Origin: a virus
IMG/VR virus record: IMGVR_UViG_3300037466_003456
Span: 32,001 to 96,000 of that record
Reading direction: 5' to 3' (one strand)
DNA length: 64,000 nt
The notes below the pieces were generated by a model. The model saw only the letters and a list, made by a program, of their open reading frames with translations, was not told the DNA's origin and ran no database searches. How positions within the stretch are numbered: position 1 is the stretch's first letter; every line of letters starts with the position of its first letter. The translations under genes and the position numbers were made by a program. Positions 33,676-52,693 of this stretch are shown here, piece after piece.

Positions 33676-33849
33676 ATGGTGTATTCCTTAGTCGGCCCGA
33701 ACGTGTATATGGATGTGAAAGGACAATTATTCAAGAAGGCAAGTGATGAGTTTGTTCTAATCAAAGATAAGTACACAGAGGCTGAGGACAGATATGTTGA
33801 AAAGCACGCCAACCGAAGGAGGAATCATGATGAAAAGACGGATGATTAA
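33676..33849 (+). CDS. Small protein with K-x-A motifs (57 aa, not in ORF track)
   Basis: MVYSLVGPNVYMDVKGQLFKKASDEFVLIKDKYTEAEDRYVEKHANRRRNHDEKTDD. Confidence 0.55.
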   Translation: MVYSLVGPNVYMDVKGQLFKKASDEFVLIKDKYTEAEDRYVEKHANRRRNHDEKTDD

Positions 33850-36253
33850 AACGGCATCGGGGATTACCATGGCTGACAGTTCACCCGCTGCCATCGAAGA
33901 GGCTTTAGTGAACCAGTTGCAGGAAGCATTAGGAGAATGGAAAAACGTAGTTAATATTAAGCCATTCATGCAAGTGGATGAAGAAGATGCAGACCTTTCC
34001 GGAAATGTAAAAAATGCTTTTGGAGCCGTTCAGCTTTCCGTACATGGTGTGAATTTATATATTCCGTTTATTGTTGTGGACAAAATGCTTCTCCCGTTTG
34101 ATACCATCCGTATGGGCGGAGAAGAAGTCGCTTATGATTACAGCAAGTTAAGACGTCTCGTGAATGCCATCGAAACAAAGGTTAAAACGTCATCAGAAGG
34201 TGACAATGATCCGTTCCAGACCATGGAGGTGGCACGGTTTGAAGATGTTCAACCGAACAATGGTTTCTTGGGAACCATTATGGGCATTCGTGATACAGCT
34301 CGCATGAGAAACGGTTTAGGGATGGATTCACCTTGGGATGGACCGGGATTTGGCAATATGGACGAGGAACGCATTATGCGTCAAGCGTCCGCTGTCGATG
34401 TTTTAAACGAATTTCACGAGGTTATGGAAAAGATTGCGAACGTAAAAGTTTTCTCTAAACTGCAAATGGAAGAATACGAACAGCATCTGTTAAAACAGGC
34501 AGAAGAGGAACAGGAAGAGGAATTATCCAAAGTGGCCGAAGCAGAAGATACCCTTGAAGCAGCCAGTGTAAGACGAGATATGCTTCAACTGGATGCAGAG
34601 AAACTAGTGAGTGTTCACCGTGTGGCTAGTGGAAACAACATCTCTTTCCCGATATTCGAAGCAGGTCGTTTTGAATACCATTCAGGTCGTGTGTATCGAA
34701 ACTTTGAAAGCTGGTTTAAGAATTCCACTACCTATGCTTCATCCAATAAGCTAGGGGCTTTAGTGATTGATTCTAAATCTGGTTACCGTTTCTTAAAGAG
34801 CGGCGAACCTTTTATGGCGAGCACCAGAGAACCCGGCAACTTCGAATTAGAAACGGAAGTAGCAAAGTCGTTAACGCATGGACATATGTATACAATCGAA
34901 AAAGACCATGCTAACTTGTTCAATCCATTCATTGTAAAAGGTTCTTATTTGCAGGATAAATTGAATAACGGTATTGTCGTGAGTGTTCGTGAAATCGCTG
35001 ACCCTACAAAAAGTCATATTCCTTCCAGAACAGCCAATAGCCTATTCTCTGATTCATTCGAGTGCTATGAATCCATGCCTGGTAACTGGAAAGGTGCTTC
35101 TGCTGATTTTGCGACAGGAAACAAACCGTTCTTTATCATCGTATCGAAAGACCGTAACATCAAAGCGCCAAAGTTCATGAATCAGCAAGAACTAAGAGAA
35201 TATATCATGCAGTATGCGGCTGATCCGCACGATGCCCTATTAGCAAAACAAGTCATTCATATTACAAATGACAACTGTGTCCTTGTGCCTGATTCCCTTC
35301 CGTTCTTTAAACTTGAAAAGAATATTACGTATTTCTACACAAGACCAGATGGGCTATTTAAACAAGGTCCAATGTCTAAGACAGCTGCATATGGAGGTTT
35401 GAACCAAGCAACCTTGTATGTACAGAATGCCCGCAATCCGAAGACGTATGGGGTGAAATGGCAATTCGCTATTCCGACCAAAGTCGAGAATGATATCGAA
35501 GCAACCCAACTACAGAAACGCAATAAAGAAGGAATGAGTGAGGATCAAGCGAAGTCCATGTTGAACAAACTAGGATTCGATTACCGTACTCAGCAAAAAT
35601 TCTTTGAAATCACGAAACGTAACGGACGTTCTGCCACCTTTAATCTGCCGAACCCTACTTTAGCAGCAACGGTGTCAGCTCCTGATGTAGCGACTGAAAA
35701 AGTAAAAAAGAAAATGAAAGGTATTGCGGACTCTCTATTAAACTCACAAAACTTTATGCCTTTGATGGAAAATGCTGTAGCGGATGGACTTTCTGCTTTC
35801 GTTTCGAATGCATTCCCAGGTTCCGTTAATGCCGTCCATAACGTAGGTAACTTCTTCGATATGTCTAAACAATCGATGGAAACCGCTTTGGAAATGGAAA
35901 AAGTGGCTACACGCTTTAATGGTGCCGAGTGGCATGAATTATCCGCTTTGTTGAACATGAAACATCGTTTAGATAAATTGGCTGCCGAAATGGAAGATGG
36001 AAGCTATTTGCAAAATGGTCGTGAAGTGTTTGAAAAAGTGGCTGAAATGAAACCGGTGATCGAGAAGAAAGCAAGTGACCTTATTCAATTTAACCGCGAC
36101 CAGTTAATTCGCACCGACAGTTATTTCGTGGAACCAACGCTTGTGAAGCAAGCACTGGAGCAATTGGATGGACTTTATGTCTATGCTTGCTCCGAAAAAA
36201 AAAAGAGTCCTTTAGAAAAGTCGCTGGACTTTTTGGCGAGGGTGCGGAGTTAA
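33827..36253 (+). CDS. Large putative virion/internal head protein with many K-x-A motifs (808 aa)
   Basis: Start MMKRRMIKTAS after GGAGG; motifs IKTA, LSKVA, MSKTA, MEKVA, LDKLA, FEKVA. Confidence 0.7.
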   Translation: MMKRRMIKTASGITMADSSPAAIEEALVNQLQEALGEWKNVVNIKPFMQVDEEDADLSGNVKNAFGAVQLSVHGVNLYIPFIVVDKMLLPFDTIRMGGEEVAYDYSKLRRLVNAIETKVKTSSEGDNDPFQTMEVARFEDVQPNNGFLGTIMGIRDTARMRNGLGMDSPWDGPGFGNMDEERIMRQASAVDVLNEFHEVMEKIANVKVFSKLQMEEYEQHLLKQAEEEQEEELSKVAEAEDTLEAASVRRDMLQLDAEKLVSVHRVASGNNISFPIFEAGRFEYHSGRVYRNFESWFKNSTTYASSNKLGALVIDSKSGYRFLKSGEPFMASTREPGNFELETEVAKSLTHGHMYTIEKDHANLFNPFIVKGSYLQDKLNNGIVVSVREIADPTKSHIPSRTANSLFSDSFECYESMPGNWKGASADFATGNKPFFIIVSKDRNIKAPKFMNQQELREYIMQYAADPHDALLAKQVIHITNDNCVLVPDSLPFFKLEKNITYFYTRPDGLFKQGPMSKTAAYGGLNQATLYVQNARNPKTYGVKWQFAIPTKVENDIEATQLQKRNKEGMSEDQAKSMLNKLGFDYRTQQKFFEITKRNGRSATFNLPNPTLAATVSAPDVATEKVKKKMKGIADSLLNSQNFMPLMENAVADGLSAFVSNAFPGSVNAVHNVGNFFDMSKQSMETALEMEKVATRFNGAEWHELSALLNMKHRLDKLAAEMEDGSYLQNGREVFEKVAEMKPVIEKKASDLIQFNRDQLIRTDSYFVEPTLVKQALEQLDGLYVYACSEKKKSPLEKSLDFLARVRS

Positions 36254-36570
36254 AACGGGTAAGCGAAGCGATCCAACGATTGAAAGGTGACATTCAAGGT
36301 CTAAATTCGGACTACCGAAATGTTCACTCAAATTTAAGAGCGTCCATGCCTAAAGGATTCTCCTCTGACAAAGTTCAATCTGCTTTCAATGAAACGGAGC
36401 AGGCAGAGCAAAACCTGAATGAAAAAGTGGATGAGTTAAAATCCCTTTTTGGAGAACATGGTGAACTGAAACAAAAAGAAGCCAACAAGAACTATGGGAT
36501 TGCTGCAGGATTCGGAATCCCTGGCTTAGTTGGATTAGGTTATGTGAATGAGCAGGCAAAAAACAACTAA
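36187..36570 (+). CDS. K-x-A / coiled-coil / Gly-rich TM module; probably a -1 frameshift extension of 33827..36253
   Basis: No good SD/start; entered via A-AAA-AAG at 36199-36205; RKVA-GLFG...GIAAGFGIPGLVGLGY. Confidence 0.65.
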   Translation: MLRKKKESFRKVAGLFGEGAELKRVSEAIQRLKGDIQGLNSDYRNVHSNLRASMPKGFSSDKVQSAFNETEQAEQNLNEKVDELKSLFGEHGELKQKEANKNYGIAAGFGIPGLVGLGYVNEQAKNN

Positions 36571-36577
36571 ACCGTAC

Positions 36578-36609
36578 AAAGGAGAGGTCAAATAACCCTC
36601 TCCTTTTTT
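36578..36609 (+). terminator. Intrinsic terminator
   Basis: AAAGGAGAGG...CCTCTCCTTT followed by a T tract. Confidence 0.8.
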
Positions 36610-36654
36610 CAAATAAGTTTTTATGCCCCACACAAGAATAGGAGGATGGTGCAT

Positions 36655-37458
36655 ATGGAACAATTCTATTTTCTTAAAGAAGCATTTGCTCAACAAAAAG
36701 GGAGATTATCCGAGGAAGAGGAATTACATCTATTGAAACAATATCAGGCGGGAGATTCACAATCAGGGGATAAATTAACGTTATCACTCCGTCCCCTAAT
36801 TGAAAAAGCCATAGTGGATGTAAGCCCTGGTGGGAACGATGTCTCCTCTTCCAATCTACGGATGAGGGCTCATGTAGAGTTACCTAAGATTCTACAAAAC
36901 TATGATCAAAACCGAGATATCAAACTAAAGACGTTTGTAACGTCTCAGCTAAAAGGTTATCTTCGCAATGCGGTAGCAGAAAATGTGAGTGGCGCTTACG
37001 TTCCTCGGAATCAGCATACCGATTTAGAGCGGTACCGCCAAGCGGTAAGGGATGCGCAAATGGAATTCGGACACAATCCATCCGAAGACCAGATTCGTTC
37101 GTTTTACCCAGAAGATGAAGCCAGCACCAGTTTCGATAAAATCAAACAATACCATTTAAACAACTATCTGGGTGACGCTACTTTCGGTCAAGGCGAAGAA
37201 AGTGAAGGATTAACGTTCAAAGATCAGTTTGCGAATGATGAGGATACTATTGATCACGATGACCTCTTTTCTTCCCTATATGATGACGAAGAAAATGATA
37301 TAATTGCTAAAAATTTCACAGCTCAAGAACAACAAGTCATCGACAAAGTTAATAAAGAAGGTCAGTCCTTTGTCAATGCTGCCTTATCACTCGGAATCAG
37401 CACAGCCGAAGTCCGAAAAACGATGAGGCGCTGGCACGAAATCACTAAAAATAAATAG
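36655..37458 (+). CDS. Phage sigma-70-family RNA polymerase sigma factor
   Basis: Region 1.2/2 (LSEEEELHLLKQYQAGD..LRPLIEK, FVTSQLKGYLRN..YVPR), region 3 (GHNPSEDQI), region 4 HTH (SFVNAALSLGISTAEVRK). Confidence 0.8.
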   Translation: MEQFYFLKEAFAQQKGRLSEEEELHLLKQYQAGDSQSGDKLTLSLRPLIEKAIVDVSPGGNDVSSSNLRMRAHVELPKILQNYDQNRDIKLKTFVTSQLKGYLRNAVAENVSGAYVPRNQHTDLERYRQAVRDAQMEFGHNPSEDQIRSFYPEDEASTSFDKIKQYHLNNYLGDATFGQGEESEGLTFKDQFANDEDTIDHDDLFSSLYDDEENDIIAKNFTAQEQQVIDKVNKEGQSFVNAALSLGISTAEVRKTMRRWHEITKNK

Positions 37459-37471
37459 TAAAGGGTGTTGT

Positions 37472-38209
37472 TTGATGAAATTTCAAGGTGTAACAGCGCA
37501 AAACATTGGTCAAGCTCATGCTTTAAAAATGCTTACTAGTTCAAAGGATTATGCGTTTTTAACTGGACCGGCTGGAACGGGAAAGACGTTATTAACTGGC
37601 GCAGTTGGACTCGAACAAGTCATTAAACATCCTAAAGATGGATTCAAAAGTGTCATCTACACTCGTCTGCAAGTGCAAACGGGGGCAGACGTTGGATTCC
37701 TGCCAGGTGATTTGATGGAAGGAAAGACCGAACCTTTCTTGGAAGGATTTAAGGATAATTTCAAGGAAATGGATTACGACTTACCTTTCGACCATCTAAT
37801 TAACAAGAAGCTGCAATTCGTGCCAATTCAAACCATGCGAGGAAGGACATTCCCTAATTCGTTCATTATCGTGGATGAAGCTCAAAACCTTGATGAAGAT
37901 ACTATTACAACCATTGCTACTCGATTGGGTATGGGGTCAAAAATGGTCTTCATGGGGAACTTCTCACAAATCGATGACAAAAAAGGATTCTTGAAAAAGC
38001 CTGAGAACAATGGGTTTTATCAATTGCTTAGTCGTTTTTACGAAACCACTGGCGGACACCAATTCTTTGAACATGTCCACCTTACAGAGATTCAGCGTTC
38101 TGGCGGTGCCGCTTTCGTAGAAAAGATGATGCGCAATCATAAATTAGATCCTCGTTTTGTTGATCTTGAGGAATGTGGAATCGTTCAGGAAGAAGTTCTT
38201 TCTGCTTAA
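37472..38209 (+). CDS. phoH: PhoH-family ATPase
   Basis: LTGPAGTGKT, GFLPGDL, MRGRT, IIVDEAQNL, GNFSQID. Confidence 0.93.
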   Translation: MMKFQGVTAQNIGQAHALKMLTSSKDYAFLTGPAGTGKTLLTGAVGLEQVIKHPKDGFKSVIYTRLQVQTGADVGFLPGDLMEGKTEPFLEGFKDNFKEMDYDLPFDHLINKKLQFVPIQTMRGRTFPNSFIIVDEAQNLDEDTITTIATRLGMGSKMVFMGNFSQIDDKKGFLKKPENNGFYQLLSRFYETTGGHQFFEHVHLTEIQRSGGAAFVEKMMRNHKLDPRFVDLEECGIVQEEVLSA

Positions 38210-38275: not shown

Positions 38276-38959
38276 GTGGCAATCTTGTCGCTTTTCGGTA
38301 ATGACAATTTGGATTCCAAACAAAGAAGAAATGTCCATCTTGCACAGTTAGGCGGTGGTTTAGCGGGCGCAGGAGCAGGATTCTTAACTTCTAAGGTGAT
38401 GGATGCCTCACACGAAAAGTCGCTATTTCAGGCAGGAATGGACGCAACGAGAGATAATGAAAAAGCTGAGTTGCAATGGAAAAGGCTAATGGATTTATAT
38501 TTAGGGAAAATCACCATCCAAGACATTCCGATTCCTGAACGTGATCGTTATTCAAAATGGCTAGAAGAAAATAAAGAAACATTAGAGACTTTTCGCAACA
38601 ATCCAGAGGAGTTTGAAAAATCCCTCAACGAAGTAAAAGGCGGTCGTCTGCAACCGTTATTTGGCCAAAAACCTTCCATCAAAGAACTTCTTTTTAGAAA
38701 GCGTCCGACCCAAGTGGATTTAAGAGGAGGAAATGTGGTTCCTTTATTTTCAGGCGAGAAAGAAGCTTTAATGGAAATTCCACACGAAATCCACAACCCG
38801 AAGGCCTATGGATTAGCTGGAATGTTAGCCGCTGGCGGTTTAATAGGTGCAGGGTATCTAGCGGAAAGGAAATACGAAAAAGAGAATAAGGGCAAATATA
38901 ACGAACAAGACTTAGATCAGCTTCAAAAAATGCTACAGGCATTGAAAGCACGAGGTTAA
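38276..38959 (+). CDS. Hypothetical protein with two Gly-rich hydrophobic segments (227 aa)
   Basis: LGGGLAGAGAGFL and GLAGMLAAGGLIGAGY. Confidence 0.7.
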   Translation: MAILSLFGNDNLDSKQRRNVHLAQLGGGLAGAGAGFLTSKVMDASHEKSLFQAGMDATRDNEKAELQWKRLMDLYLGKITIQDIPIPERDRYSKWLEENKETLETFRNNPEEFEKSLNEVKGGRLQPLFGQKPSIKELLFRKRPTQVDLRGGNVVPLFSGEKEALMEIPHEIHNPKAYGLAGMLAAGGLIGAGYLAERKYEKENKGKYNEQDLDQLQKMLQALKARG

Positions 38960-39033
38960 AGCCTTGATTCGTGAATTATGATACATTATTTATAGGTCAT
39001 TTTTCCTATGTAAATAAAGTGAGGTGGAACTGT

Positions 39034-41271
39034 GTGGATGATTTATTAAACCGTTTGGAAAAGTCGGCGGGTCTCGGTGGCGGATTGTTTAAAGGATTCG
39101 GAAACTACCTTAAAAACGTTTCAAACTATAACGTTCGTAAATTAGAAAAAGCGAATGCCCTTCCGAAAGAAATTACGAACGCTAAAGTAGACCGTAATAT
39201 CGCCCGCGCCGGAACGGCAGGTGTTGGTATGCTAGGTGGTGCTGCATATGGAGGTTATAAAGCCTTTGAAGGTACCCAACAGCAACCTATGGATACGACT
39301 TTGTATGAGCAAAATCAATTTACTCAAAATAACCTGCAACCGAAAATCGCTTCTGAAATGATGGATCGGTTGGAAAAGTCAGCTGGTAGTGAAGATATAC
39401 CGCAATTAAATCATCATTCCCTTCTTAGTGCTGAAGGCGCAATGGCAACAGCCCCTATGGGAGCAATATTGGGTGGTTTAAAAAATGCTTCTAAGTTCGG
39501 GGAACGTGGTGCATTAAAAGGCGGACTCGGTGTTTTGCGCGGCGCGGCTGTAGGAGGTGTTCTAGGTGCTATACCAGGCATGGAAGTAGGTGGAGCGATC
39601 GGTTCTCTTTTAGATGCCAACGAATTAACGAAATCACGCCGTTTGCAAGAACGACAAGCTATTAAGGATGCTATTAAAGAGGAGTTGAGAGAACAAATGG
39701 GGAAAACAGCAGAAACAGACCTGTTGGAGCGTTTAGAGAAAACTGCTGGTATTTTCGGCGATATTGTAAAAGCCACAGGTATTGGAGCTGGACGTGCAGA
39801 AAAGAAATTCAATGAATTCGCTTCCCCTCAAGGGTTTTTACAGCACGAACCAACGATGGGTGCCCAGGATTGGCAACTACAAGCAAATAACCTAAAAAAC
39901 CAAAGTGAACGAGCGGGGTTAGAACGTGATGTTGCACGTAAGAATCTTGTTGGCCCTGGTCTTGTAACAGGCGGTATAGCTGCACTTGCTGGGTCGATTG
40001 GTTTATCCGTTCATGAGATGCAACAACTTCATCAAGAAGCTTTGGCTGAATTGCAGGCAGAACAAGCACAAGGAGTACAAGCACAAGGGGTACAAGGAGA
40101 TGATTATATGAAAGAGGCAAATGAATTACTAGAGCGATTAGAAAAAACAGCTTCTCTAAAGGAAGTTCAGGCAACAGACGAAGATTTATTTGCTCGTTTA
40201 GAAAAAACAGCAAATCCTTTTGAAGAGAAAGAAAAAAAGGACGAAGGTGAAGAAGAACAAAAGGCTCCGCAACAATCTAAAGAGGATTCTGAGCCGAAAC
40301 AGTCACAAGCTCCAAAGCAAGAACAACCAGCACAACAAGCACAACCAGAACCACAAGCACAGACGGCACAACCGGAGCCAACACCAGAGCCAACACCAGC
40401 ACCTCAACAACAACAGGTGCCATTAGCAGCTCAACAACCACTTCCAGAACAAGCGCCAGATCCGCGTTTATTAATACTTCAGCAGATTTTAGCTGACCAA
40501 CAACAAGGAGCGGCTCCAACGCCTGTTGAACCTCCAGTTCAGGAAGTCCCGCAAGAAGTAGCTGCTCCGGCTCCACAAGATCCTCATTTGGAGTTGCAAC
40601 AATTGCTTGCTCAACAACAAGCGGCAGACCCGACTCCAGTGGCAGCTTCATCAATGGCAGGGTATGGAGCACTCGAAACTGGTGATGCTTCTCAAGAAAG
40701 CCCTCGTCAAGGTGCAGGCTCTGTATCTAATGCCCCTGCTGGTGTAGATAAGACTGCTTCTTTATTTGAGAGTTTAGAAAAAACAGCAGCAGGCATTCCA
40801 GGACTTGGTTCTGTAGTCAATGCAGTTAAACCTAAAGCTACAAATCTAGCTATTAAAGGTGCACAAAAAGCCGGAGATTTCACTAAACAAATCGGTGGCG
40901 GAGATTTCAAAGCTGGCTTAAAGAGAATTGGAACAGGTTCTGCTCTTGTTGGAGGTGGAGCTATTGCGGGTGCAAGTGCTCAAGCGTCTCATGACAGCAA
41001 CATGAGTAAAGCGGCGGCTGAGGAAACACCAGCCGAACAAAAATCCATCGCGGATAAATCTGAAAAAGAATGGATCGACTTCATGCACAAAGTGGAAAAA
41101 GAAGATGGTGTGAAGGCAGAAGAAAAGCCTGAGAATCAATCAAAAACCGCTTCAGAAGACGATGATATGTTAAACGGATTATTTAAAGAAGCCGCAGCCG
41201 CTATCATGGATATGCACTTTCCGGAAGTAAGACAGCATGTTGATCCAATCAACCGTATTACTTTCAACTAA
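39034..41271 (+). CDS. Putative virion polyprotein with six L-x-x-L-E-K-[ST]-A repeats
   Basis: GTG start after GAGGTG; Gly-rich hydrophobic modules and a P/Q-rich linker between the repeats. Confidence 0.75.
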   Translation: MDDLLNRLEKSAGLGGGLFKGFGNYLKNVSNYNVRKLEKANALPKEITNAKVDRNIARAGTAGVGMLGGAAYGGYKAFEGTQQQPMDTTLYEQNQFTQNNLQPKIASEMMDRLEKSAGSEDIPQLNHHSLLSAEGAMATAPMGAILGGLKNASKFGERGALKGGLGVLRGAAVGGVLGAIPGMEVGGAIGSLLDANELTKSRRLQERQAIKDAIKEELREQMGKTAETDLLERLEKTAGIFGDIVKATGIGAGRAEKKFNEFASPQGFLQHEPTMGAQDWQLQANNLKNQSERAGLERDVARKNLVGPGLVTGGIAALAGSIGLSVHEMQQLHQEALAELQAEQAQGVQAQGVQGDDYMKEANELLERLEKTASLKEVQATDEDLFARLEKTANPFEEKEKKDEGEEEQKAPQQSKEDSEPKQSQAPKQEQPAQQAQPEPQAQTAQPEPTPEPTPAPQQQQVPLAAQQPLPEQAPDPRLLILQQILADQQQGAAPTPVEPPVQEVPQEVAAPAPQDPHLELQQLLAQQQAADPTPVAASSMAGYGALETGDASQESPRQGAGSVSNAPAGVDKTASLFESLEKTAAGIPGLGSVVNAVKPKATNLAIKGAQKAGDFTKQIGGGDFKAGLKRIGTGSALVGGGAIAGASAQASHDSNMSKAAAEETPAEQKSIADKSEKEWIDFMHKVEKEDGVKAEEKPENQSKTASEDDDMLNGLFKEAAAAIMDMHFPEVRQHVDPINRITFN

Positions 41272-42592: not shown

Positions 42593-44248
42593 ATGGCTTC
42601 TTTAAAAGAAGTAGAAGGTCAGCTGACCCCGATGAGGTTCGCAGAATCAATGTATATGTTGGAAGGTTCCCCGTTACGATTTGGACCAGGGCGGAATTAT
42701 CTGAAAGCCATACATAATGCGGACATCGAAGAATTGCTGATGATGACAGGTCGTCAGGTAGAGAAATCCACCTCGATCTCTGTAAAAATAGCCAACAACA
42801 TTCTATTAAGAAGTTTCAGCCGGAATCTTTACGTCGCACCCCTAAACGAACAGGTGAAAGTATTCTCTCGTGGTCGTCTGGATAAATTGTTCCGATACTC
42901 ACAAAAGGATTTAATTCGGAAACGGTACCAGAGTAATGACTTGGTAAATCAGGTATTCCATAAAGAATTTATGAATGGTAGTGAAATTTACCTTCGGAAC
43001 TGTTTTGAAGAAGCCGACAATATTCGTGGACTATCTGTCAGTGACATCTTTATCGATGAAATTCAGGACATCCTAGTCGATGCCCTACCCGTAATCTTAG
43101 AAACTCAAACACGCGCAAAAAAGAAGCGTAGAATCTATACGGGAACTCCCAAGTCGTTTAGTAACACGATACAACAACAGTGGGAGAAAAGTAGTCAAGC
43201 AGATTGGGTGATTCGTTGCTCCCACTGTGGGAAGCACCAAGTTATGGGGGTCGATTCGGTTACTGCTGCTTCATATGTATGCCGAAATCCTCGATGCCGT
43301 AAACCGATTGATGATATCGTTCGGGCCATGGGTCGCTGGGAACACCGTTTTCCAGACCGCCGGATGAAGGGTTTCCGTGTCACGCAAATGATGGTTCCTG
43401 ACATTAAGTCTGCGGATCTCCTGCAGAAGATTGAAACCTACCCTATCCTCCGTTTGAAAAATGAGGTTTTAGGAGAATCCTATGAAAATGCGGATAAACC
43501 ATTCACCCGTCAATTTATGATGGATATTACTGATCACGAATTCTCGATGATGAACGGAATCGTCAATACCCCATTCGCCAACACCCCAACATTCTTGGGT
43601 ATTGACTGGGGCGAAGGCGAAAAGAATGGGCAAGCTGGAACAGGTTACACTGTTATGACAGTCGGAGCCTATAATTCCGAAGGAAAGTTCCAAATCCTTT
43701 ATGCCAAGCGATTTGAACGTGGCGATGAGTTAGATCCTGATTATCAGATTCGTAGTCTTCTTAATCTAGTAAAAGTCTTTAACTGTCGTTTTGTCGTCGC
43801 TGACTATGGAGCAGGGGTTAAAGAGAACAAGAGAATTCAAAAACAGTTGGGAAAAATATTTGCTCAAATTCAATACGTCGGACAGCAAAAAAAGAAACTT
43901 AACTATGATGCGGGTGAGTTTAAGTTTCTAATCGAGCGTTCCGACTGGATGACCGACTTTATTGATTTCGCCCACGATGGAAACCTTCGTTTCTTTGGGA
44001 AAAATCATGAAGGGGCATTGGATTGGATTTACGATAATTTTTGTGCCATTTATTCCGAATACCGTCCTGCTTCCAATGGGCTGTCTGAGAAACTATTTTA
44101 CGGTCACGATGTCTCCCAGCCAGACGATGCATTTCACAGTGTTTTTTATGCGTGGTTTGCTTCCACGATGTATAAGAATGGAAACTCTAACCCGCAAAGG
44201 AATACAGGTCAAAAGAAATATTTTGCCTCTGTCAAAGCGGGATACTAG
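42593..44248 (+). CDS. terL: Terminase large subunit (GpA-like)
   Basis: Walker A-like GRQVEKST, Walker B FIDEIQD, TGTPK, CSHC/CRNPRC zinc motifs, nuclease GIDWG, ADYG, PDDAFH. Confidence 0.88.
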   Translation: MASLKEVEGQLTPMRFAESMYMLEGSPLRFGPGRNYLKAIHNADIEELLMMTGRQVEKSTSISVKIANNILLRSFSRNLYVAPLNEQVKVFSRGRLDKLFRYSQKDLIRKRYQSNDLVNQVFHKEFMNGSEIYLRNCFEEADNIRGLSVSDIFIDEIQDILVDALPVILETQTRAKKKRRIYTGTPKSFSNTIQQQWEKSSQADWVIRCSHCGKHQVMGVDSVTAASYVCRNPRCRKPIDDIVRAMGRWEHRFPDRRMKGFRVTQMMVPDIKSADLLQKIETYPILRLKNEVLGESYENADKPFTRQFMMDITDHEFSMMNGIVNTPFANTPTFLGIDWGEGEKNGQAGTGYTVMTVGAYNSEGKFQILYAKRFERGDELDPDYQIRSLLNLVKVFNCRFVVADYGAGVKENKRIQKQLGKIFAQIQYVGQQKKKLNYDAGEFKFLIERSDWMTDFIDFAHDGNLRFFGKNHEGALDWIYDNFCAIYSEYRPASNGLSEKLFYGHDVSQPDDAFHSVFYAWFASTMYKNGNSNPQRNTGQKKYFASVKAGY

Positions 44249-44287: not shown

Positions 44288-45202
44288 ATGATCCCTGTTA
44301 GAAATAAGAATACCGACATTAGTTCTGATGTGGCAGCGGGTAAGAAACTTCAGGATAAAATCAAGAAGTTAGCTGAAACGGCGGCAAATCAAAGCATCAA
44401 TGACGGCAAAGATTTGGATGTCGTGCTTGCCGAGATAAGCAAACGGGAAAAGTTTAACCGGTTGCAGATTCAGAGGTTGGTAGAAGAATCAAATACGGTG
44501 GCTTACAATAAAAGGTATGACAAATTACGAAATCAAAAGGACAGGCGAATCGATTTCCCTCTCGCCTCTTTATCAGGAGTGATTAATGAAATGGGTAATG
44601 ATGCACCAGCAGAAATCAAAAATCCAAATTTAAAAGATGGCGGTCAAGGGACTGGAGAACTCTCTAAAGCGGCATCCGTAGAGGAATTCACATATATCCA
44701 TACTCCCAATGCACGTTTAAAGGAAAGAGAAGAACGATACCTTTCCAAAGTAGCTTCCGTCCAACAGCGCCAAGACGAACGGGAAAAATCAAGACAAGAA
44801 AAAGATCACCAAAGTTCTCTCTTTAAAATTGCCAATTCTATTGTGATGTCCGAGCGCCAATATAAAAATGGGAATGAAGTGTTCAATACTCTTCTTTCTG
44901 ATGTTTCATTGGCACAGGATGACATTGATGGCATTAAGAAGAAAGCCTCTGAAATCGGTGATGCATTGGTTAAAACGAAACGAACCCATTCTGGCTTTGT
45001 GGTAACCTTAAAGGAGAATCCGATTGAGAAAGTCGCTAGTCATGTTCTTGGAGAATACAGCCTTTTAAAGGTTGCCGAGAGCAATGATAAGGTCAAAGTA
45101 GTAAAAGTCCAACCTACGGCAGATGTATCGGATTTTAATCAATTAGTCACTTTAGCCAGGAAGCTACAACAACAAGCAAGCACTGGGAATGAGGTGAATT
45201 AA
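44288..45202 (+). CDS. Putative virion protein with K-x-A motifs (304 aa)
   Basis: IKKLA, LSKAA, LSKVA, FKIA, IKKKA, IEKVA, LLKVA; located between terL and portal. Confidence 0.7.
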   Translation: MIPVRNKNTDISSDVAAGKKLQDKIKKLAETAANQSINDGKDLDVVLAEISKREKFNRLQIQRLVEESNTVAYNKRYDKLRNQKDRRIDFPLASLSGVINEMGNDAPAEIKNPNLKDGGQGTGELSKAASVEEFTYIHTPNARLKEREERYLSKVASVQQRQDEREKSRQEKDHQSSLFKIANSIVMSERQYKNGNEVFNTLLSDVSLAQDDIDGIKKKASEIGDALVKTKRTHSGFVVTLKENPIEKVASHVLGEYSLLKVAESNDKVKVVKVQPTADVSDFNQLVTLARKLQQQASTGNEVN

Positions 45203-45203
45203 T

Positions 45204-46856
45204 GTGTCGAACTACTTTGAAGAATTAGAGAAGATTGCCAATGACCTTACATTGGTGGATGATCTTGCTGCAGAGCCAATGGTTCCCGATTATGCACCTC
45301 AGATTCCTCCAGAGGAAGTGGAAGCGATTCAAGCCAATCAACCTGATATGGTCGATACCGAAGCTGGAATGGAAGGGCAAGAACCCGTTTCCCAGGAAGA
45401 TATAGAAGCTTATGATCAGGCAATCGAGCAAGCTCAAATGCAATTGGAATCTGCTAAAGAAACGTTGGCGAGTGCCATGGAAGAATACAATGCATTCGAA
45501 AAAACCGCTCAAGAACTAAATGATGCTCTTCCGACCATGGGAGCATTGGCTAAGTTAATTGAATACTCCACAAGCGAAACCATCGACGATGACCTTCGGA
45601 AACAGGCAAGCGACCGTTTAGTAATGGCGCTTGAAAGTGAAGAAAGTTTTGTAGAAGTCATGGATAAAACAGCAAACGAGCTATTTGAAGACCAAGAAGA
45701 TAAGGATGCCCTATACTCTCCTGAAGGAAGGGAATATGTCATTGAGCGTCTTGCTTTGTTCGCTGAGGATGAGGAGTTAGAAAAGACAGCGGCTGATTTA
45801 GGTGGATTCGTGAATGACGCTCGTAAATGGGCCGCAGAATCCCTTGATGCAGCAAGGAAATTCCACAAATTACGTGCTGATGTTAAACAAACACAAGCTG
45901 AGGTTGACCGTTTAGAATCAATCATGAAAGAAAAAGTAAATGCATTGAAAGATGCGCAAAGCTTAAATGATGATGACTTGGTGGCTAAATTAGAACCAGA
46001 GGCCTTTGGAGCAAGGGATGACCACACTCGAATGAAAGGTCAGCTTTTAGATGAGCAGATACAACGAGACCGAGGAAGGAACTTATTGATCGGCGGGGCG
46101 ACAGGACTGGTTGGTGGTTCTTTATTTGCAGGTAAAAAAATAGCCGATGCCTTCAATAATCATGGTGAAAACCAAGGTGAAAATGAATTGGCAGAGAAAA
46201 CGGCTAGTGATACAATAAAACAAGATTATGTATTTAAAGAAGGAGGCAATATTAACATGGCAGAATCAATCGTAAAAGATTTTCTTAAAATCGCGGGAGC
46301 GGCTGTTTTATTAGATGTGGCAAACGATGAGGGTGCTGAAGAGGCAATCCGCAAAGAAGCAGCTGAAGCTTTTAACGGTATCGCTCGCATGGGGCGTAAG
46401 GATATGGAGGAAGCTCTTGTAAAAGTTGCTACTCAAATGTATTCTGAAGACCAATTACACGAAATCGTTTCAGGCAAACATAATGAAGAGTTATTCGGTA
46501 AGGTTGCATTCTTCACTAGCCTTAACGACCTTTCTGTGGACGAGCTTGAAAAAGTTGCGGCTGCTGAGTCTGTTGCAGCTAAAGGTGTTGGCGGCGCTCT
46601 TACTGACGCTAAATCAAACATCGAAGCAAAAGTAGAAGGCGACAAAAAGAAAACCGAAACAGTGGCTAACGGCGAAATCGGCACTAAAAAGGCTGACGAT
46701 ATGCGCGGTTACAATGTAATCAATAGCCCTGGTGAATACAAGGTTGAAAAAACTGCGGCTACACAAACTATGCTTGAAGAAGCTGAGCTTCGCAAAGAAG
46801 CAGCATACAAAGCATTTGTAGAAGCTGATACTTTCATTAAAAACAATTCTAAGTAA
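45204..46856 (+). CDS. Putative scaffold/internal head protein with K-x-A motifs (550 aa)
   Basis: Acidic and helical; LEKIA, FEKTA, MDKTA, LEKTA, AEKTA, FLKIA, LVKVA, LEKVA, VEKTA; one Gly-rich TM-like segment. Confidence 0.7.
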   Translation: MSNYFEELEKIANDLTLVDDLAAEPMVPDYAPQIPPEEVEAIQANQPDMVDTEAGMEGQEPVSQEDIEAYDQAIEQAQMQLESAKETLASAMEEYNAFEKTAQELNDALPTMGALAKLIEYSTSETIDDDLRKQASDRLVMALESEESFVEVMDKTANELFEDQEDKDALYSPEGREYVIERLALFAEDEELEKTAADLGGFVNDARKWAAESLDAARKFHKLRADVKQTQAEVDRLESIMKEKVNALKDAQSLNDDDLVAKLEPEAFGARDDHTRMKGQLLDEQIQRDRGRNLLIGGATGLVGGSLFAGKKIADAFNNHGENQGENELAEKTASDTIKQDYVFKEGGNINMAESIVKDFLKIAGAAVLLDVANDEGAEEAIRKEAAEAFNGIARMGRKDMEEALVKVATQMYSEDQLHEIVSGKHNEELFGKVAFFTSLNDLSVDELEKVAAAESVAAKGVGGALTDAKSNIEAKVEGDKKKTETVANGEIGTKKADDMRGYNVINSPGEYKVEKTAATQTMLEEAELRKEAAYKAFVEADTFIKNNSK

Positions 46857-46993: not shown

Positions 46994-48436
46994 TTGGCAA
47001 AGAAAAAAGAGATGTATGAAGATCATTTAGGAAATCTTTCTTGGAAAGATTCTTGGCTTCAAAACACTGTCCAATTGGCAGCCTTGGGTGGAATCGTGGC
47101 GGGAGCGAGCAGTTTAGCCATTAAGGGTGACTTAGGAGATGCGTTCAGAACCGGTAAGTCTGCCTTTAAACCTGTAGGTAAGGTGTTTGATAAGTACGTG
47201 AAAGACAGAGCTGGCATGCCAGTTAAATTCGGGTACCAGGTGTTCAAAAATATGTATAACAACATGAGGAAATTGACACCTGAAGAAAGAGATGTCTTCG
47301 AACGAGGTTTCTATGGCCGAGTAGACAACGCGGTAGACAAAGTAGATACCGATCCCGAAATTCAAAATCGTATTTGGAAAGAAGTGGAACGGAGATTTCC
47401 GACAGAACGAGAAAGACAGAAAGTAAGAGACCGACGTAACGGAACCAATAATTTTTCCCAAACAAGTGACAATGAAGCGATTGACCAGATTTATGAACAA
47501 GTACGCTCTGAAGAACGGGATAAGTTGATTTACGGCAACAGCAATGGAGGACAACGAAATAACCGAAACAACCGGAATAACAATACTTTCAATAACCATA
47601 ACAACAATCGACCGTTGTTCGACAAGAGAGATTTAGCCCAAAAGTTCATTGCAAGTGGCGTGATGGGATTAGGTACGGGAGCTGGTCTTACAGCCTTCCA
47701 TTACATTGACCGATTATCGAAAGACCCGAGCTCCCAACAAAGATTGGAGAACACATTTCAACATGCTGGTTCGTTCTTAAATCCTCAGAAAAAGGATGAT
47801 GATAAAAAGATGGATAAACAAGCGAGTGTACTAGGATTTTACAACGCTGTAAAGGATGCACCTAAAAAACTACCTGAAGCTCTTTTTGCCGGCGCAGGAT
47901 ACACAGGTCTTACATTAGGTACTGCCAAGTTACTACATGGCCATGACCCGCGTAAGACAGAACCACAAGCAAATGAGGAACCGGCGTCCGCAGGACCACG
48001 AGTCATCATTGAACTAGGAAACCCCACTGAAGAACAACAGCATGCTGGCATGCCACTCGGTTTAAGTGGTCTTCCTAAATTGGCAGGTTTCAGAAACTTT
48101 TTAAATGACTTTAACGGGCATGAAGCGGAAATTGGTAGATTGCAAAACATTCACCATGCAGATGTAGCGGCAGAAGCACTAAAGAATGAAAACGTCGAAG
48201 ACCTTCTTCATCAGCAGTATGGGCATTTGGTCAACGATAAAACTCAAGCGAATTTCACCAATCGCCTTTTCGAAAGCAGAGCAGCGCAGTCTAAACAGGA
48301 AGCGGATGAAAGAATCAGACAACTTCAAGAACAAGAAGCAAGAGCAAAACTAACTGTTTACGGTGGCGGCATTGGCGCTGCTGGTTTAGCTGGAATGGGT
48401 TATGCCCACCACAAAAAGGAGCAACCAAATGTATAA
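46994..48436 (+). CDS. Putative virion membrane-active protein (480 aa)
   Basis: Four Gly/Ala-rich hydrophobic segments; MDKQA and LPKLA motifs; N-rich linker. Confidence 0.7.
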   Translation: MAKKKEMYEDHLGNLSWKDSWLQNTVQLAALGGIVAGASSLAIKGDLGDAFRTGKSAFKPVGKVFDKYVKDRAGMPVKFGYQVFKNMYNNMRKLTPEERDVFERGFYGRVDNAVDKVDTDPEIQNRIWKEVERRFPTERERQKVRDRRNGTNNFSQTSDNEAIDQIYEQVRSEERDKLIYGNSNGGQRNNRNNRNNNTFNNHNNNRPLFDKRDLAQKFIASGVMGLGTGAGLTAFHYIDRLSKDPSSQQRLENTFQHAGSFLNPQKKDDDKKMDKQASVLGFYNAVKDAPKKLPEALFAGAGYTGLTLGTAKLLHGHDPRKTEPQANEEPASAGPRVIIELGNPTEEQQHAGMPLGLSGLPKLAGFRNFLNDFNGHEAEIGRLQNIHHADVAAEALKNENVEDLLHQQYGHLVNDKTQANFTNRLFESRAAQSKQEADERIRQLQEQEARAKLTVYGGGIGAAGLAGMGYAHHKKEQPNV

Positions 48437-48728
48437 CTTGCCCGTTGATCAGCACCCCACCGAAAGATGGGCAACTATTGTGGAAGGGGCCAGAACCCAA
48501 CGCGTTATTGCCCTCCGATACCGGGATAAATCGTTCGAGGTGTCCGAAAGATTGGTTGAACCCTACGAGATCAAACAAGGAAAACTGTTTGCCCACTGTT
48601 TAACGAAAAACGGAATGAGAGCATTTATCCTCGACAACATTTTAGCGGCAGCAGGTACAAACACCGAGTTTGTTCCTCGCTTCCCTGTTGTCGTGGAATC
48701 CTTCCAGTCCTTGAAAGCAAAACAATAA
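48429..48728 (+). CDS. Stand-alone WYL-domain protein
   Basis: IALRYRDK...ERLVEPYEI..GKLFAHC....MRAFILDNI; start after AAGGAG, overlapping the upstream stop. Confidence 0.8.
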   Translation: MYNLPVDQHPTERWATIVEGARTQRVIALRYRDKSFEVSERLVEPYEIKQGKLFAHCLTKNGMRAFILDNILAAAGTNTEFVPRFPVVVESFQSLKAKQ

Positions 48729-48777: not shown

Positions 48778-50667
48778 ATGATTAAAATTTCGTCTTTTCT
48801 CGTCAATGACAGAGCAACAAGAGTATATGCCGATTATGTTGAAAAAGTCGCATTTCCAATAGGTGCTGACGCTGGTTTGATTATGGGTTCGATTGCTGCT
48901 GGACTAACAATGAATCACTTCTCCAGAAAAGCAAAAGAGCAACAGCAACAACAAAACGCACAGCCATCTCCTAGCATTGAAAATGGTGCGTACACCCAAA
49001 TTGAAAATATGTTACGTGATCTTAAAATTGTTTTCACACCGATTAGCGTCATTTATTCGGTGAATGGGCAAGTATTTGAAATCATCAGTACCGAAGAAAT
49101 GAATGCTTATATGAGGCAAGCGTTCATCCAAAAAGATGCTAATTATTTTCGTGACCTTCTCTTAAACAAAATTAATATGGAAACACAATTAGCCGAGCAA
49201 GCCTTTGCCCAGCGCCTTTTGACCGCAAACGGAGTGGGTGAACAGCAAAAGCAGGCAAACTTCCTGGAAAAACAAGAATACCTTTTGAAACTTTCGGAAG
49301 AAGAAAGCGATGTTTTGGTGAAAAAAGCATCGCAAGGATTGGATGGAGTAAAAATCACCATCGACCCAACTTTTGATTCTCTCCGTCCCTTCGATCATTC
49401 CATCACTTTTTGCAACCCGAGGGAATTGGAAAAAGTGGCAGGCATTTTTGAATTATTCCAAGGCGATCAAGTTCAAGATGTCGGAGTTCATCAATTAAAC
49501 AGTCAAGTGAACGTCGGATTCCTTCCTGACAGAGTGGTGTTCTTGTGGAATGGACAACTGATTGACCAGCTTACCCTCCTTCACATGAATGAAGAAGGTT
49601 TTGAAGCATTCCGGAACCGAGATAAACCATTTTTTATCGACTTATTTAAGCAATATACCAAAGAAGTAACGGAGGGATTACAGGAATCTCCATCGGAACC
49701 AAATCATATTGAAGCGCCTGAAGAGGAAACCCATGAAGCTTCTGTATCCGACATTCTGGAACGGCTAGAAAAGACTGCTGAGGGCTTTGAGGACATCCTA
49801 GATGACTTTACTCCTGTTATTGAAAGAGATCATATAGAGCTATTTGAAGATCCTGATATCCATCCGATTGTGTACGACAAAGTATTGTCTCACAAGTACA
49901 GCAATTCATGGCACAGACACGAAATGGAATCAATTATGAAACAGATTGAGGAGGACTTCCACCTATCTAAAGGGATAGAGGAGAATCCACTTAATAAACT
50001 TTCCATCATTCATGCCATTTCGAATCCTGACCACGCCATGTACACATCACCATTTACATTTGAAAAGTACATGCGTGGTATGAATTCCAAATCCGTTTTA
50101 TTTGAGGATTTTCAAGGCAATCTCTCTTTCGAGGAAATCATGTTTGGTTTGGAATTAGCCAAACTCTATAACGGAGAGGAAGTGTTTTTTGAGTTCCACT
50201 CCAATGTTGCTGCTTATGTAGCAGAAGAAATCATGAATGATGGAGTTCGATTTGTTTCTAACGTGCTATACGACGAAACGAATCCATCTGAAAATGATTT
50301 CTTCCGTACAGTCAATGACTTACTGATGAGGAAATGGAAAGAAGAAGATTCACTGGGATACAGGGATAACGAGGGCGTTCGCCATCGACATACATTAACG
50401 GAACAGATTGTTGAAATCGCCGATGACATCTTAAAACATTACAATTCTTTGTTGGATGTTGCGGATCCCTACAATTCTACCCGAAATATTTTGCGAAGTG
50501 AAAACTTACTGGATGTTGTTTCTTCACAAGACCAAACAAGTGTGAGAAACATGGTGGTTCAGAATGTTGTGGCTCATGTCACCACTTCCTTGTTTTTAGA
50601 TTATAAACGTGAAGAATATGAACACTCCATCTCATTGTTACAGAAAGAAGGTGTGCTAAATGGATGA
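48778..50667 (+). CDS. Putative virion protein with K-x-A motifs (629 aa)
   Basis: VEKVA, LVKKA, LEKVA, ILERLEKTA; internal duplicated segment (TPISVIYSVNGQ / LPDRVVFLWNGQ); overlaps the portal start. Confidence 0.7.
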   Translation: MIKISSFLVNDRATRVYADYVEKVAFPIGADAGLIMGSIAAGLTMNHFSRKAKEQQQQQNAQPSPSIENGAYTQIENMLRDLKIVFTPISVIYSVNGQVFEIISTEEMNAYMRQAFIQKDANYFRDLLLNKINMETQLAEQAFAQRLLTANGVGEQQKQANFLEKQEYLLKLSEEESDVLVKKASQGLDGVKITIDPTFDSLRPFDHSITFCNPRELEKVAGIFELFQGDQVQDVGVHQLNSQVNVGFLPDRVVFLWNGQLIDQLTLLHMNEEGFEAFRNRDKPFFIDLFKQYTKEVTEGLQESPSEPNHIEAPEEETHEASVSDILERLEKTAEGFEDILDDFTPVIERDHIELFEDPDIHPIVYDKVLSHKYSNSWHRHEMESIMKQIEEDFHLSKGIEENPLNKLSIIHAISNPDHAMYTSPFTFEKYMRGMNSKSVLFEDFQGNLSFEEIMFGLELAKLYNGEEVFFEFHSNVAAYVAEEIMNDGVRFVSNVLYDETNPSENDFFRTVNDLLMRKWKEEDSLGYRDNEGVRHRHTLTEQIVEIADDILKHYNSLLDVADPYNSTRNILRSENLLDVVSSQDQTSVRNMVVQNVVAHVTTSLFLDYKREEYEHSISLLQKEGVLNG

Positions 50668-52693
50668 AAACATGAAAGCCGACATTTCCCGCATGGAAGA
50701 AAAGATGGCGAACTATCTTGATAAATTAACAGGTCATTCCGATGGAATGTTTAAAACGGCGGCTGCTACTGGGATGATGTATAACTCCAGCTACAAACAA
50801 TATCGTTCCAGCTTTTTAACCCTCGGAGATATGCAAATTCCTGATGATTATCGGGAGATTTTTAGATGGTGCCGATACTTTTTTAAGTTTGATAGTTTGG
50901 TTGGGGCGGCAGTTCGTTCACTAGCCACCTTCCCGATAACAGATTGGGTGTTAGATGATACGGAGAATTCCGACGATGAGGATTCAGAGGATCAATCAGA
51001 GGATGAATCAGAAGAACCCTCTGAAACTTACAAATTTTACGAGAGTATCTTAAATGACATCAAGCTATACAGCCACATGATTGAGGTTGGCTACGATTAC
51101 TTCTTGTACGGTAACTGTGTCATATTTGCCGAGCCGGGAGTCAAGAATATCAAACGTCGTGACCCTGACACCGGACAAGTATCCGAAAGAAAAGAAGTGG
51201 TTTGGAAATCGATTCAACGATTGGATGTTACCCGTCTTCGGATTGACCGAGACCCAAAAACAAATGAAAAACAATATTACTATGACATTCCTTTGGAATT
51301 AAAGCGTGTCATTCAAACGCAGAAACCGAAGGAAAAATACGATAGAATACCAGAAATTTTCAAAAAGGCGGTTAAAGCAAAAGGATTGGTCAAACTAAAA
51401 TCCGACTACATCTATCATTTGCAGATGCCTTCTGAAAGCGGAGATTCAGGATTATGGGCCACACCACCGGTGTTACATGCCATGAAGCTTATCTTGTATT
51501 CGAACGTGTTGAGACAAGCGCAAGAAGCGATTGCCTATGAACATATCATCCCTAAGCGGATCTACTATTTCCAAGAAACGCAGGAGTATTCGCCAAACAT
51601 GGACTTTGCTTCCATCGCTTCCGAGTTCGCCCTTGAATTAAAACGTCAGCTCGATGATCCAAACTACCAGGTCATTAGCCCGTTCCCAATCAATCAGCTC
51701 ATGCATGGCGGACAGGGTAAGGCATTGATGCTCGTTCCTGAATTGGAACAGCTGCAAGAAACCATCTTAGCGGCGATGGGTACTCCACGTGAATTCGTTT
51801 TTGGAGGAGTTTCCTATTCTGGCAGTACAACGAGTCTACGAATCTTGGAAAACCAATTTATCACGTACCGTACCAATTTACTGGACTATATCAATGATTT
51901 CTTAATTAAGAGATTGGCAGAAATCCGAGGTGAATGGGAAACCATCGACGATGATAAAAAGCTCGTAAAAGTTCAGTTTGCCGAGCTCAAGATGCAAGAT
52001 GATATCCAACAAAAGCAACTAATGTTGCAACTCAATGAAGCGGGTAAACTGCCGGATGAAGTGTTGTACGAAAAGGTATTGGGCCTCGATGCCAGCAAGA
52101 CGATTAAGCAATTGCAGGCAGAACGCATCCGAAAACTAAAAGAGCAAGCAGAACTGCAAATTAACCAAATGGAAATTGAGCAGGAAATGCAAGATGAAGC
52201 GATGCAGAGGGGATTAATGACTCCACCTGTTCCTGTGAATGGTCCTGTTATTCCTGAACCTGCAGCAGGCGCATATGGTCAGGCAACCGAGGGAGACCCG
52301 ATGATGGCTGAGGCTGGCGGTGATATGGCTGGCGATCCTACAGGAGGAGCTCAACCGACTTCGGACAGTAGTCAATCTTCTTCTGGTTCAAGTAGCGGAA
52401 GTAACTCATCATCAAAATCGGACAAGTCATCATCCGATAAAAAATCCGGTGAATCGGGTGGTAAGTCGGGACGTGAGGAACGCGATGCCTTAAAGATGGC
52501 TCAGCAAATGGAACTAATGACTGAAGCACAAAAGGCGAATCTTATCCGCAAACTTCCTCAGAAGGAAGCGCAACGGATTCTCCTATACTACAACCAGTTA
52601 AAGGCAGAACACGGTTCATCCGATTCTGGAGAAACCGACATGAGACCATACCCTGAACAGCGCCCACCACGTAGAACGGTCGGTGGTGTGTAA
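50660..52693 (+). CDS. Portal protein
   Basis: IFRWCRYFFKFDSLVGAAV, DYFLYGNCVIF, LQETILAAMGTP..F, SYSGSTTSLRIL; size, acidic low-complexity tail and location near terL fit. Confidence 0.75.
   Translation: MDENMKADISRMEEKMANYLDKLTGHSDGMFKTAAATGMMYNSSYKQYRSSFLTLGDMQIPDDYREIFRWCRYFFKFDSLVGAAVRSLATFPITDWVLDDTENSDDEDSEDQSEDESEEPSETYKFYESILNDIKLYSHMIEVGYDYFLYGNCVIFAEPGVKNIKRRDPDTGQVSERKEVVWKSIQRLDVTRLRIDRDPKTNEKQYYYDIPLELKRVIQTQKPKEKYDRIPEIFKKAVKAKGLVKLKSDYIYHLQMPSESGDSGLWATPPVLHAMKLILYSNVLRQAQEAIAYEHIIPKRIYYFQETQEYSPNMDFASIASEFALELKRQLDDPNYQVISPFPINQLMHGGQGKALMLVPELEQLQETILAAMGTPREFVFGGVSYSGSTTSLRILENQFITYRTNLLDYINDFLIKRLAEIRGEWETIDDDKKLVKVQFAELKMQDDIQQKQLMLQLNEAGKLPDEVLYEKVLGLDASKTIKQLQAERIRKLKEQAELQINQMEIEQEMQDEAMQRGLMTPPVPVNGPVIPEPAAGAYGQATEGDPMMAEAGGDMAGDPTGGAQPTSDSSQSSSGSSSGSNSSSKSDKSSSDKKSGESGGKSGREERDALKMAQQMELMTEAQKANLIRKLPQKEAQRILLYYNQLKAEHGSSDSGETDMRPYPEQRPPRRTVGGV

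Follow-up and report, generated by a model that had tools for sequence, protein, structure and literature searches.

Bacteriophage T4 gp21 and phiKZ gp175 cleave head proteins at short motifs ending in Glu. In T4, IPI-III and Alt carry capsid-targeting leaders in which the targeting sequence and the cleavage site coincide, which shows the two functions to be compatible. Outside phages, the herpesvirus assemblin (S21) is a serine protease that matures the capsid and belongs to the structural superfamily of gp21; it acts at (V/L/I)-x-A↓S sites, with Ala at P1 and Ser at P1′. Processing at a single short motif is also documented in the phiKZ-type phages (phiKZ gp175, 201phi2-1, SPN3US gp245; motif (S/A/G)-x-E), where it reaches many head-internal or ejection proteins and the portal, and where the protease also cleaves its own C-terminus (PMC5694885, PMC10052503). 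In SPN3US, gp245 recognises a P3-x-P1 motif with a preference for Ser at P1′ (PMC10052503). Glu precedes the cut in every characterised phage example compared here (T4, phiKZ, 201phi2-1 and SPN3US). In this work we analyze a stretch of 64,000 nucleotides (the window, bases 32001-96000 of the single 121,681-bp IMG/VR virus record IMGVR_UViG_3300037466_003456) in which a Lys-x-Ala (K-x-A) motif, in its fuller form [L/M/F]-[E]-K-x-A-[S/A/G/N], recurs throughout a group of head-block proteins. We argue that this motif is probably recognised and cleaved by a T4-gp21-like prohead serine protease encoded by the phage itself.

The record, classed as linear, reaches 80% completeness in CheckV and represents a large myovirus-type phage. 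The tail genes (sheath, tube, tape measure, tail lysin) occupy its first 34.6 kb, on the + strand, and a long minus-strand block lies downstream. A further + strand block, at 33.7-59.8 kb of the window, encodes a PhoH-like protein, the large terminase, the portal, a WYL protein and a fused beta-beta′ RNA polymerase. An earlier note on this DNA, made from the letters alone, had pointed out K-x-A motifs in at least eight genes of this block and near the portal N-terminus, and had read them as the mark of a Lys-x-Ala-specific head protease or packaging-tag system. The motifs are present in all nine open reading frames (ORFs) concerned, which are listed below together with two internal negative controls. 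Proteins are named after the first position of their ORF, phi stands for a hydrophobic residue, "pattern" for the expression used in the earlier note ([hydrophobic]-[EDSK]-K-[TVIQSLAK]-A), K.A for Lys and Ala at spacing i, i+2, and the arrow for the predicted cut.

33676-33849, + strand: small ORF of 57 amino acids (aa), containing LFKKAS and VEKHAN
33794-36253 (probable start 33827-33842), + strand: 819-aa protein with 10 phi-x-K-x-A sites; 7 pattern matches against 0.3 expected
36187-36570, + strand: 127-aa continuation of the 819-aa protein in the -1 frame; begins FRKVA↓GLFGEG and ends in a Gly-zipper hydrophobic segment
38971-41271, + strand: low-complexity protein of 766 aa; of its 13 phi-x-K-x-A sites, six read (L/F)xxLEK(S/T)A; 8 pattern matches against 0.35 expected
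44288-45202, + strand: conserved 304-aa protein with 7 phi-x-K-x-A sites; 5 pattern matches against 0.18 expected
45204-46856, + strand: acidic 550-aa protein whose 15 phi-x-K-x-A sites begin with LEKIA↓ND at residue 10; K.A 18 against 6.1 expected
46994-48436, + strand: 480-aa protein with Gly-zipper ends, in which MDKQA↓SVLGF is the one strong site; enrichment not significant
48778-50667, + strand: 629-aa protein upstream of the portal, with a leader ending in VEKVA↓F (residue 25), sites at 158, 219 and 332, and a helical C-terminal domain (348-629)
50753-50761, + strand: K-T-A in the portal N-terminus (GMFKTA↓AATG), residues 32-34 of ORF 50660-52693
42593-44248, + strand: large terminase, internal negative control, without the motif
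53028-59753, + strand: fused beta-beta′ RNA polymerase of 2,241 aa, internal negative control; K.A 7 against 13 expected and no pattern matches

The excess of the motif is restricted to the head-block proteins. With composition-based expectations for K.A and per-protein shuffles for the pattern, the nine head-block proteins (4,579 aa) contain 31 pattern matches, 71 K.A pairs where 31.6 are expected (z 7.0; 2.25-fold) and 35 occurrences of the extended form phi-x-K-x-A-[SAGN]; individual carriers show three to eight pattern matches against 0.1-0.45 expected. The remaining genes of the same + strand block (3,916 aa; sigma-like, PhoH, terminase, WYL and RNA polymerase) contain no pattern match, 13 K.A pairs against 19.6 expected and one extended form. 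The 25 tail proteins (11,207 aa) yield one pattern match, 37 K.A pairs against 41.7 and three extended forms. The earlier note had noticed no such series in the replication genes, and the minus-strand proteins contain four pattern matches in 10,167 aa and, over a wider set of 71 proteins (15,896 aa), 72 K.A pairs against 76.1 expected and two extended forms. The enrichment in the head block is thus strongly confirmed, the extended form being some 40-fold denser in the head block than elsewhere (35 occurrences against six in the remaining ~31,000 residues of the genome). In an unbiased scan of the carriers, K.A ranks first among all 400 residue pairs at gap 1. The sites share the local consensus [D/E]-x-[L/M/I/F]-[E]-K-[T/V]-A-[S/A/N/G], and the small residue said to follow the motif often is indeed there, as S, A, N or G, in 45 of the 71 K.A sites. 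What has to be narrowed is the number of genes involved: six or seven proteins encoded beside the portal and terminase genes are rich in the motif, and the enrichment is borne by five (33794, 38971, 44288, 45204 and 48778). Between one and three sites are found in each of the 36187 protein, the 46994 protein and the portal, and the 38276 protein has no extended-form site.

The same approach recovers the known motif of the T4 protease. Under the shuffle test, the T4 motif [LI]-x-E is in excess in gp22 (16 against 5.9 expected), gp21 (7 against 2.6) and gp68 (5 against 2.0); gp22 and gp21 stand out most, gp68 and gp23 show a weaker excess, and none is seen in gp67, gp24, the terminase, the tail sheath or the portal. 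The T4 proteins show no K.A excess.

Lys and Ala of these sites are also retained in homologues of 25-57% identity, often within gappy, low-confidence linkers or where a short N-terminal leader ends. Homologues of the carriers occur only in uncultured sequences and in Priestia megaterium assemblies, on contigs of 175-180 kb, where the gene order is the same. In the 33794 protein, Lys and Ala are invariant or nearly so at nine sites across 23 homologues of 35-91% identity. Among 26 homologues of the 44288 protein, K127/A129, K248/A250 and A182 are invariant, and K154, K180, K218/A220 and K261/A263 are at least 90% conserved; each of its seven sites has a Lys, an Ala or both in one of these two classes. 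The 48778 protein keeps K23, K158, K219 and K332 in 35-40 of its 41 homologues, down to 23% identity, within columns that are otherwise gappy and variable. Motifs are likewise retained in the 45204 orthologues of two relatives (L005 and L008) and, as LEKTAG and LSKTAG, in the 38971 orthologue of a Priestia-associated 180-kb contig, and in general the motif persists in orthologues of relatives at only 25-35% identity. When the alignments are pooled, 20 of 25 Lys residues within K-x-A are at least 80% conserved, compared with 22 of the 101 other Lys (Fisher p 1e-7), and 17 of 25 Ala compared with 22 of 99 (p 5e-5).

These results bear directly on the simplest alternative, namely that K-x-A has no shared function and simply arises, as a by-product, from helical or repeat-derived sequence rich in Lys, Ala and Glu, or from the common descent of its carriers. 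The carriers are indeed helical, charged and partly of low complexity, and the 38971 protein is internally repetitive. Yet the 2.25-fold excess persists when composition is kept, K.A heads the pair scan, Lys and Ala of the sites are conserved far more strongly than the other Lys and Ala residues, the carriers share no detectable homology among themselves, and T4 head proteins show nothing of the kind. The by-product explanation is therefore largely refuted by the conservation, pair-scan and enrichment tests, and we consider it highly improbable.

A second line of evidence comes from the protease that might read the motif. The first ORF of the record is incomplete:

G000:C1:35-514 (locus L001): C-terminal ~150 residues, about two-thirds, of a ~250-aa zinc-ribbon neck protein

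The record thus starts inside the neck gene, and the head genes that normally precede it (with capsid, scaffold and protease expected among them) have been cut off. Three contigs with homologues of the neck protein are too short to reach the head module, but a metagenomic relative (L013) is collinear with the start of the genome (43-71% amino acid identity from the neck gene to the tape measure) and encodes, directly upstream of the neck gene, a head-maturation protease protein, scaffold-like proteins and a capsid protein. The first of these is the following:

L013:2582-5023: 813-aa protein whose N-terminal ~200 residues match head maturation proteases (phrog_18299, E 2e-10; phrog_2774, E 3e-25)

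This protein contains 20 K.A pairs against 5.5 expected; 17 of them are C-terminal to the protease domain, beginning with those at residues 225, 245 and 258. Two neighbouring proteins of 239 and 388 aa are enriched as well (5 against 1.1 and 11 against 4.2, respectively), and the 310-aa major capsid protein (phrog_2522, E 1e-19) has no K.A at all, a pattern similar to that of the known motif in T4. Across four distant members, the protease domain shows invariant His90 and Ser141 and a Cys-rich insert (C-x2-C...C-x-H). The protease that the earlier note expected elsewhere in the genome was thus not found in the 80%-complete record, but it does appear in a collinear relative immediately upstream of the point at which our contig begins; the protease gene of this phage presumably sits in the missing part, just ahead of the first gene of the contig.

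The association between motif and protease extends far beyond these two genomes. Searches with the protease domain (tblastn) retrieved Vibrio phages D69, D181 and D148, Salmonella phage Arash (gp222), Bacillus phage G (gp19) and some 200 Bixzunavirus-type mycobacteriophages. In Arash, K.A is in excess in gp220 (10 against 3.1), gp223 (8 against 2.9), gp225 (7 against 1.8) and the protease protein gp222 itself (7 against 3.2), and the sites share the phi-x-K-x-A-[S/A] shape. Three of these proteins (gp220, gp222 and gp223) are annotated as structural from mass spectrometry, whereas gp225 is not, and none has detectable homology to the carriers in the window. Phage G shows the same excess in gp19 (8 against 2.5), gp7 (14 against 7.5) and gp21 (7 against 2.7); its gp19 is annotated as a head maturation protease, with no specificity given (PMC12484599). 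Mycobacterium phage Tonenili also has the protease domain; its K.A excess is confined to gp249, the protease protein. The domain is encoded by 309 stretches in IMG/VR, and a pair scan of 614 proteins from 68 of the best 80 of these loci again places K.A first of 400 pairs (2136 against 1110; z 31), followed by L.K and M.K. K.A exceeds expectation more than 1.5-fold in 63 of the 68 loci, and Ser is 4-fold enriched after the Ala. Genes upstream in these loci are also in excess (1342 against 832), probably because other head genes lie there, and do not constitute a clean negative control. One of the protease loci shares a 152,620-bp contig with a distant relative (L007) that carries the WYL gene, a 48778-type gene, the portal and the fused RNA polymerase in the order seen in the window. 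The motif hence travels with the protease family across distant phages and hosts. Together with the enrichment and the motif-rich tail of the L013 protease, this co-occurrence supports the idea of a head protease or packaging-tag system specific for Lys-x-Ala.

The taxonomic spread also constrains which enzyme might be involved. Another protease could in principle read the motif, be it a host enzyme or the papain-family (Peptidase_C1) protein encoded near the end of the genome, outside the window (G000:C1:118863-119609, minus strand, locus L099; Pfam E 4e-25), and a distant relative has a second Peptidase_C1 gene near its head block (L007:3015-3923). Nonetheless, no homologues of this protein were found in Arash, phage G or the Vibrio phages, all of which show the motif, and its gene stands among minus-strand, non-structural genes. 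The absence from Arash and phage G makes the papain-family enzyme the weaker candidate, and the occurrence of the motif in both Salmonella and Bacillus phages makes a single host enzyme unlikely; we regard reading by any such protease as very unlikely. Two familiar types of processing were rejected. The Prp protease of the Firmicutes processes L27 at F-F↓A sites, and host Prp-type processing was discarded because K-x-A is a different motif and is found in a Salmonella phage as well; signal-peptidase-like A-x-A cleavage was discarded because the sites are internal and numerous. Further Peptidase_C1 homologues are found in Lak megaphages, in Burkholderia phage FLC9 and in an Alicyclobacillus phage, in which the protein is annotated as an endolysin.

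The position of the sites within the carriers provides a third source of evidence. Short N-terminal leaders ending in the motif are found in the 33794, 45204 and 48778 proteins and in the portal. An alignment of portal N-termini shows a 30-60 residue extension, variable in both length and sequence, ahead of (M/V)-x-K-x-A; the motif is kept in three relatives (MVKIA, MFKTA, RKMA), and the Arash portal, which lacks it, begins exactly at this point. The sites of the 33794 protein include MIKTA↓SG (residues 17-23), LSKVA (246), MSKTA↓AY (529) and five more in a C-terminal four-helix bundle. In the AlphaFold2 model of this protein (mean predicted local distance difference test, pLDDT, 66), sites 19, 246 and 529 fall in linkers with pLDDT below 50, and the other five within helices of the bundle (residues 681-805). 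The model of the 48778 protein (pLDDT 74) places sites 158 and 332 in linkers with pLDDT below 50 and site 219 just before one, and these linker sites precede the confidently modelled all-helical domain (348-629). The proposal that the sites mark domain boundaries is thus borne out for part of them, but predicted helices contain about half of the conserved ones.

The helical sites lend themselves to a different explanation, according to which K-x-A is an uncut docking or capsid-targeting motif, part of an amphipathic ...L-E-K-x-A... helix that binds the scaffold, the portal or the interior of the shell and so loads its carriers into the prohead. Several conserved sites share one four-helix bundle, and the 38971, 45204 and 48778 proteins share an extended consensus, (D/E)-L-L-x-x-L-E-K-T-A, that resembles a helical tag. 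Docking alone, however, leaves unexplained the small residue after the Ala, the sites at the ends of variable leaders and in disordered linkers, and the cluster that follows the protease domain of the protease protein in several lineages. A purely docking role thus appears unlikely, being conceivable above all for the helical sites, and docking and cutting may coincide as they do in the capsid-targeting sequence of T4.

Taken as the motif of a gp21-like protease, K-x-A would operate along the following lines. Its carriers, namely scaffold-like proteins, internal or ejection-type proteins, the N-terminal leader of the portal and the protease's own tail, would be co-assembled into the prohead. 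The protease would then cut them, most likely after the Ala (P3 Lys, P1 Ala and a small P1′ residue), removing short N-terminal leaders, separating domains at linkers and chopping helical, scaffold-like regions into small pieces. We infer cleavage itself, its register and the head-internal placement of the carriers, and propose a cut after the Ala because of the P3-x-P1 logic of the T4, phiKZ and SPN3US enzymes, the P1′ Ser preference in SPN3US and the A↓S sites of assemblin. The latter provide a precedent for a K-x-A↓S register, even though assemblin has a hydrophobic residue instead of Lys at P3 and only two sites (release and maturation) per scaffold precursor.

The resemblance to the T4 system lies in a three-residue P3-x-P1 motif repeated in scaffold, internal proteins and protease, and in short leaders that end in the motif. 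It differs from that system in the predicted P3 Lys and P1 Ala (as opposed to Leu/Ile and Glu for gp21), in the Cys-rich insert and long C-terminal extension of the relatives' protease (813 aa in L013), and in the lack of a site in the relatives' major capsid protein, gp23 being cut in T4. With the phiKZ-type phages it shares a large myovirus background and an RNA polymerase detected in virions, in this case those of the relative Arash (PMC10585845). The phiKZ-type enzymes cut after Glu, as shown by mass spectrometry, whereas cutting after Ala is a prediction here. The system would hence be of a known kind, a prohead-protease motif, with a new predicted P3-Lys/P1-Ala specificity; a literature search limited to open-access papers found no publication on Lys-x-Ala or after-Ala prohead cleavage.

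Several observations weigh against this interpretation. The 121,681-bp record shows no match to PF04586 (S78), PF03420 (S77), PF00574 (ClpP) or phrog_18299. The relatives' protease domain has no Pfam (S77 included) or PDB sequence match, and its link to T4 gp21 is weak: the hhalign alignment (E 8e-4, probability 24%) pairs His90 and Ser141 with the NH and VSS motifs of gp21, which contain its catalytic His and Ser. The published virion proteomes of Arash (PMC10585845) and phage G (PMC12484599) report no processing, and the Arash paper makes no mention of a protease or of cleavage. No carrier has a recognisable fold, and their head-internal location is deduced only from the position of their genes, between terminase and portal. 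Finally, the conserved sites in predicted helices of folded domains, such as the 681-805 bundle of the 33794 protein, would fit a binding or packing motif as well as they fit a degraded scaffold.

Searches for the identity of the carriers were uninformative. Pfam and PHROGs profile searches of all of them returned nothing useful, Foldseek comparisons of the 33794 and 48778 models with PDB and VIA-align wide gave no convincing fold match (generic helical bundles and weak, unconvincing HtrA-type matches), and the ESM Atlas held no usable look-alike for the beta-rich residues 249-531 of the 33794 protein.

The interest of a Lys-x-Ala specificity goes beyond this genome. The defined prohead-protease motifs of T4, phiKZ and SPN3US have allowed packaged proteins, their trim points and the way in which cargo is targeted into capsids to be predicted. 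The specificity predicted here covers a large lineage of phages of 120-500 kb, most of them uncultured, with phage G, Arash and Vibrio phages D69, D181 and D148 among its cultured members. If the prediction is correct, dozens of head proteins per genome now labelled "hypothetical" could be annotated by a simple rule at the sequence level; the motif would also delimit the mature proteins for structural studies and could be engineered as a tag that targets capsids.

A more speculative extension, which we hold to be possible but unlikely, is that K-x-A constitutes a combined code for interchangeable cargo, which would be loaded into the capsid and then cut. The cuts would release glycine-zipper peptides or domains that are ejected with the DNA and a virion RNA polymerase and insert in the host membrane to aid genome entry. 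Under this scenario the new N-termini would be Gly/Ala-rich and hydrophobic (LEKSA↓GLGGGLF, LEKTA↓GIFGDI, MDKQA↓SVLGF and FRKVA↓GLFGEG), and a frameshift in the 33794 gene would set the ratio of its forms with and without the membrane segment. The frame change concerned takes place at a homopolymeric run:

36195-36204, + strand: A10 run, the point of frame change between the 819-aa ORF (33794-36253) and the -1 frame ORF (36187-36570)

Both the A10 run and the frame change are found at the same place in two independent relatives (L101 and L102), which have 80% and 90% protein identity and come from different sequencing runs. More distant homologues of the 33794 protein are encoded by one continuous ORF of about 900-1000 aa, whose C-terminus is matched by that of the 36187 ORF. 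The A10 site looks like a programmed -1 frameshift or a transcriptional slippage site yielding a short and a long isoform, rather than a sequencing error. Upstream of the 33794 homologue, genes of 55-59 aa comparable to the small ORF at 33676 also occur in L101 and L102 and in a third relative, L005.

Gly/Ala-rich glycine-zipper segments recur in several proteins of the window (38276-38959, 38971-41271, 46994-48436, 48778-50667 and 36187-36570), and one more carrier of such segments lies outside the block (G000:C1:101303-102040). They often start right after a K-x-A, as in LEKSA-GLGGGLF, LEKTA-GIFGDI, MDKQA-SVLGF and FEKQA-SILGLLAGMG, and several sites of the 38971 protein are followed by Gly/Ala-rich hydrophobic segments. 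The 629-aa 48778 protein contains two copies of a three-strand-plus-helix module, at residues ~82-117 and ~244-279 (FTPISVIYSVNGQVFEII... and GFLPDRVVFLWNGQLIDQ...), which are separated by K-x-A sites.

With regard to the genome as a whole, no close relative was found in the cultured-phage collection, the top terminase identity being 28%, and a search of IMG/VR with the portal of the window alone retrieved no relative. The fused RNA polymerase corresponds to two separate genes in Arash, gp206 and gp216, whose products rank with the most abundant of all proteins found in the virions of that phage (PMC10585845); the polymerase of the window may for this reason be a virion-packaged enzyme. A small WYL-domain protein (48402-48728 of the window; Pfam E 9e-7) is encoded in the head block just before the 629-aa gene, an unusual place for a ligand-sensing regulator domain, and this position is kept in the distant relatives L007 and L008.

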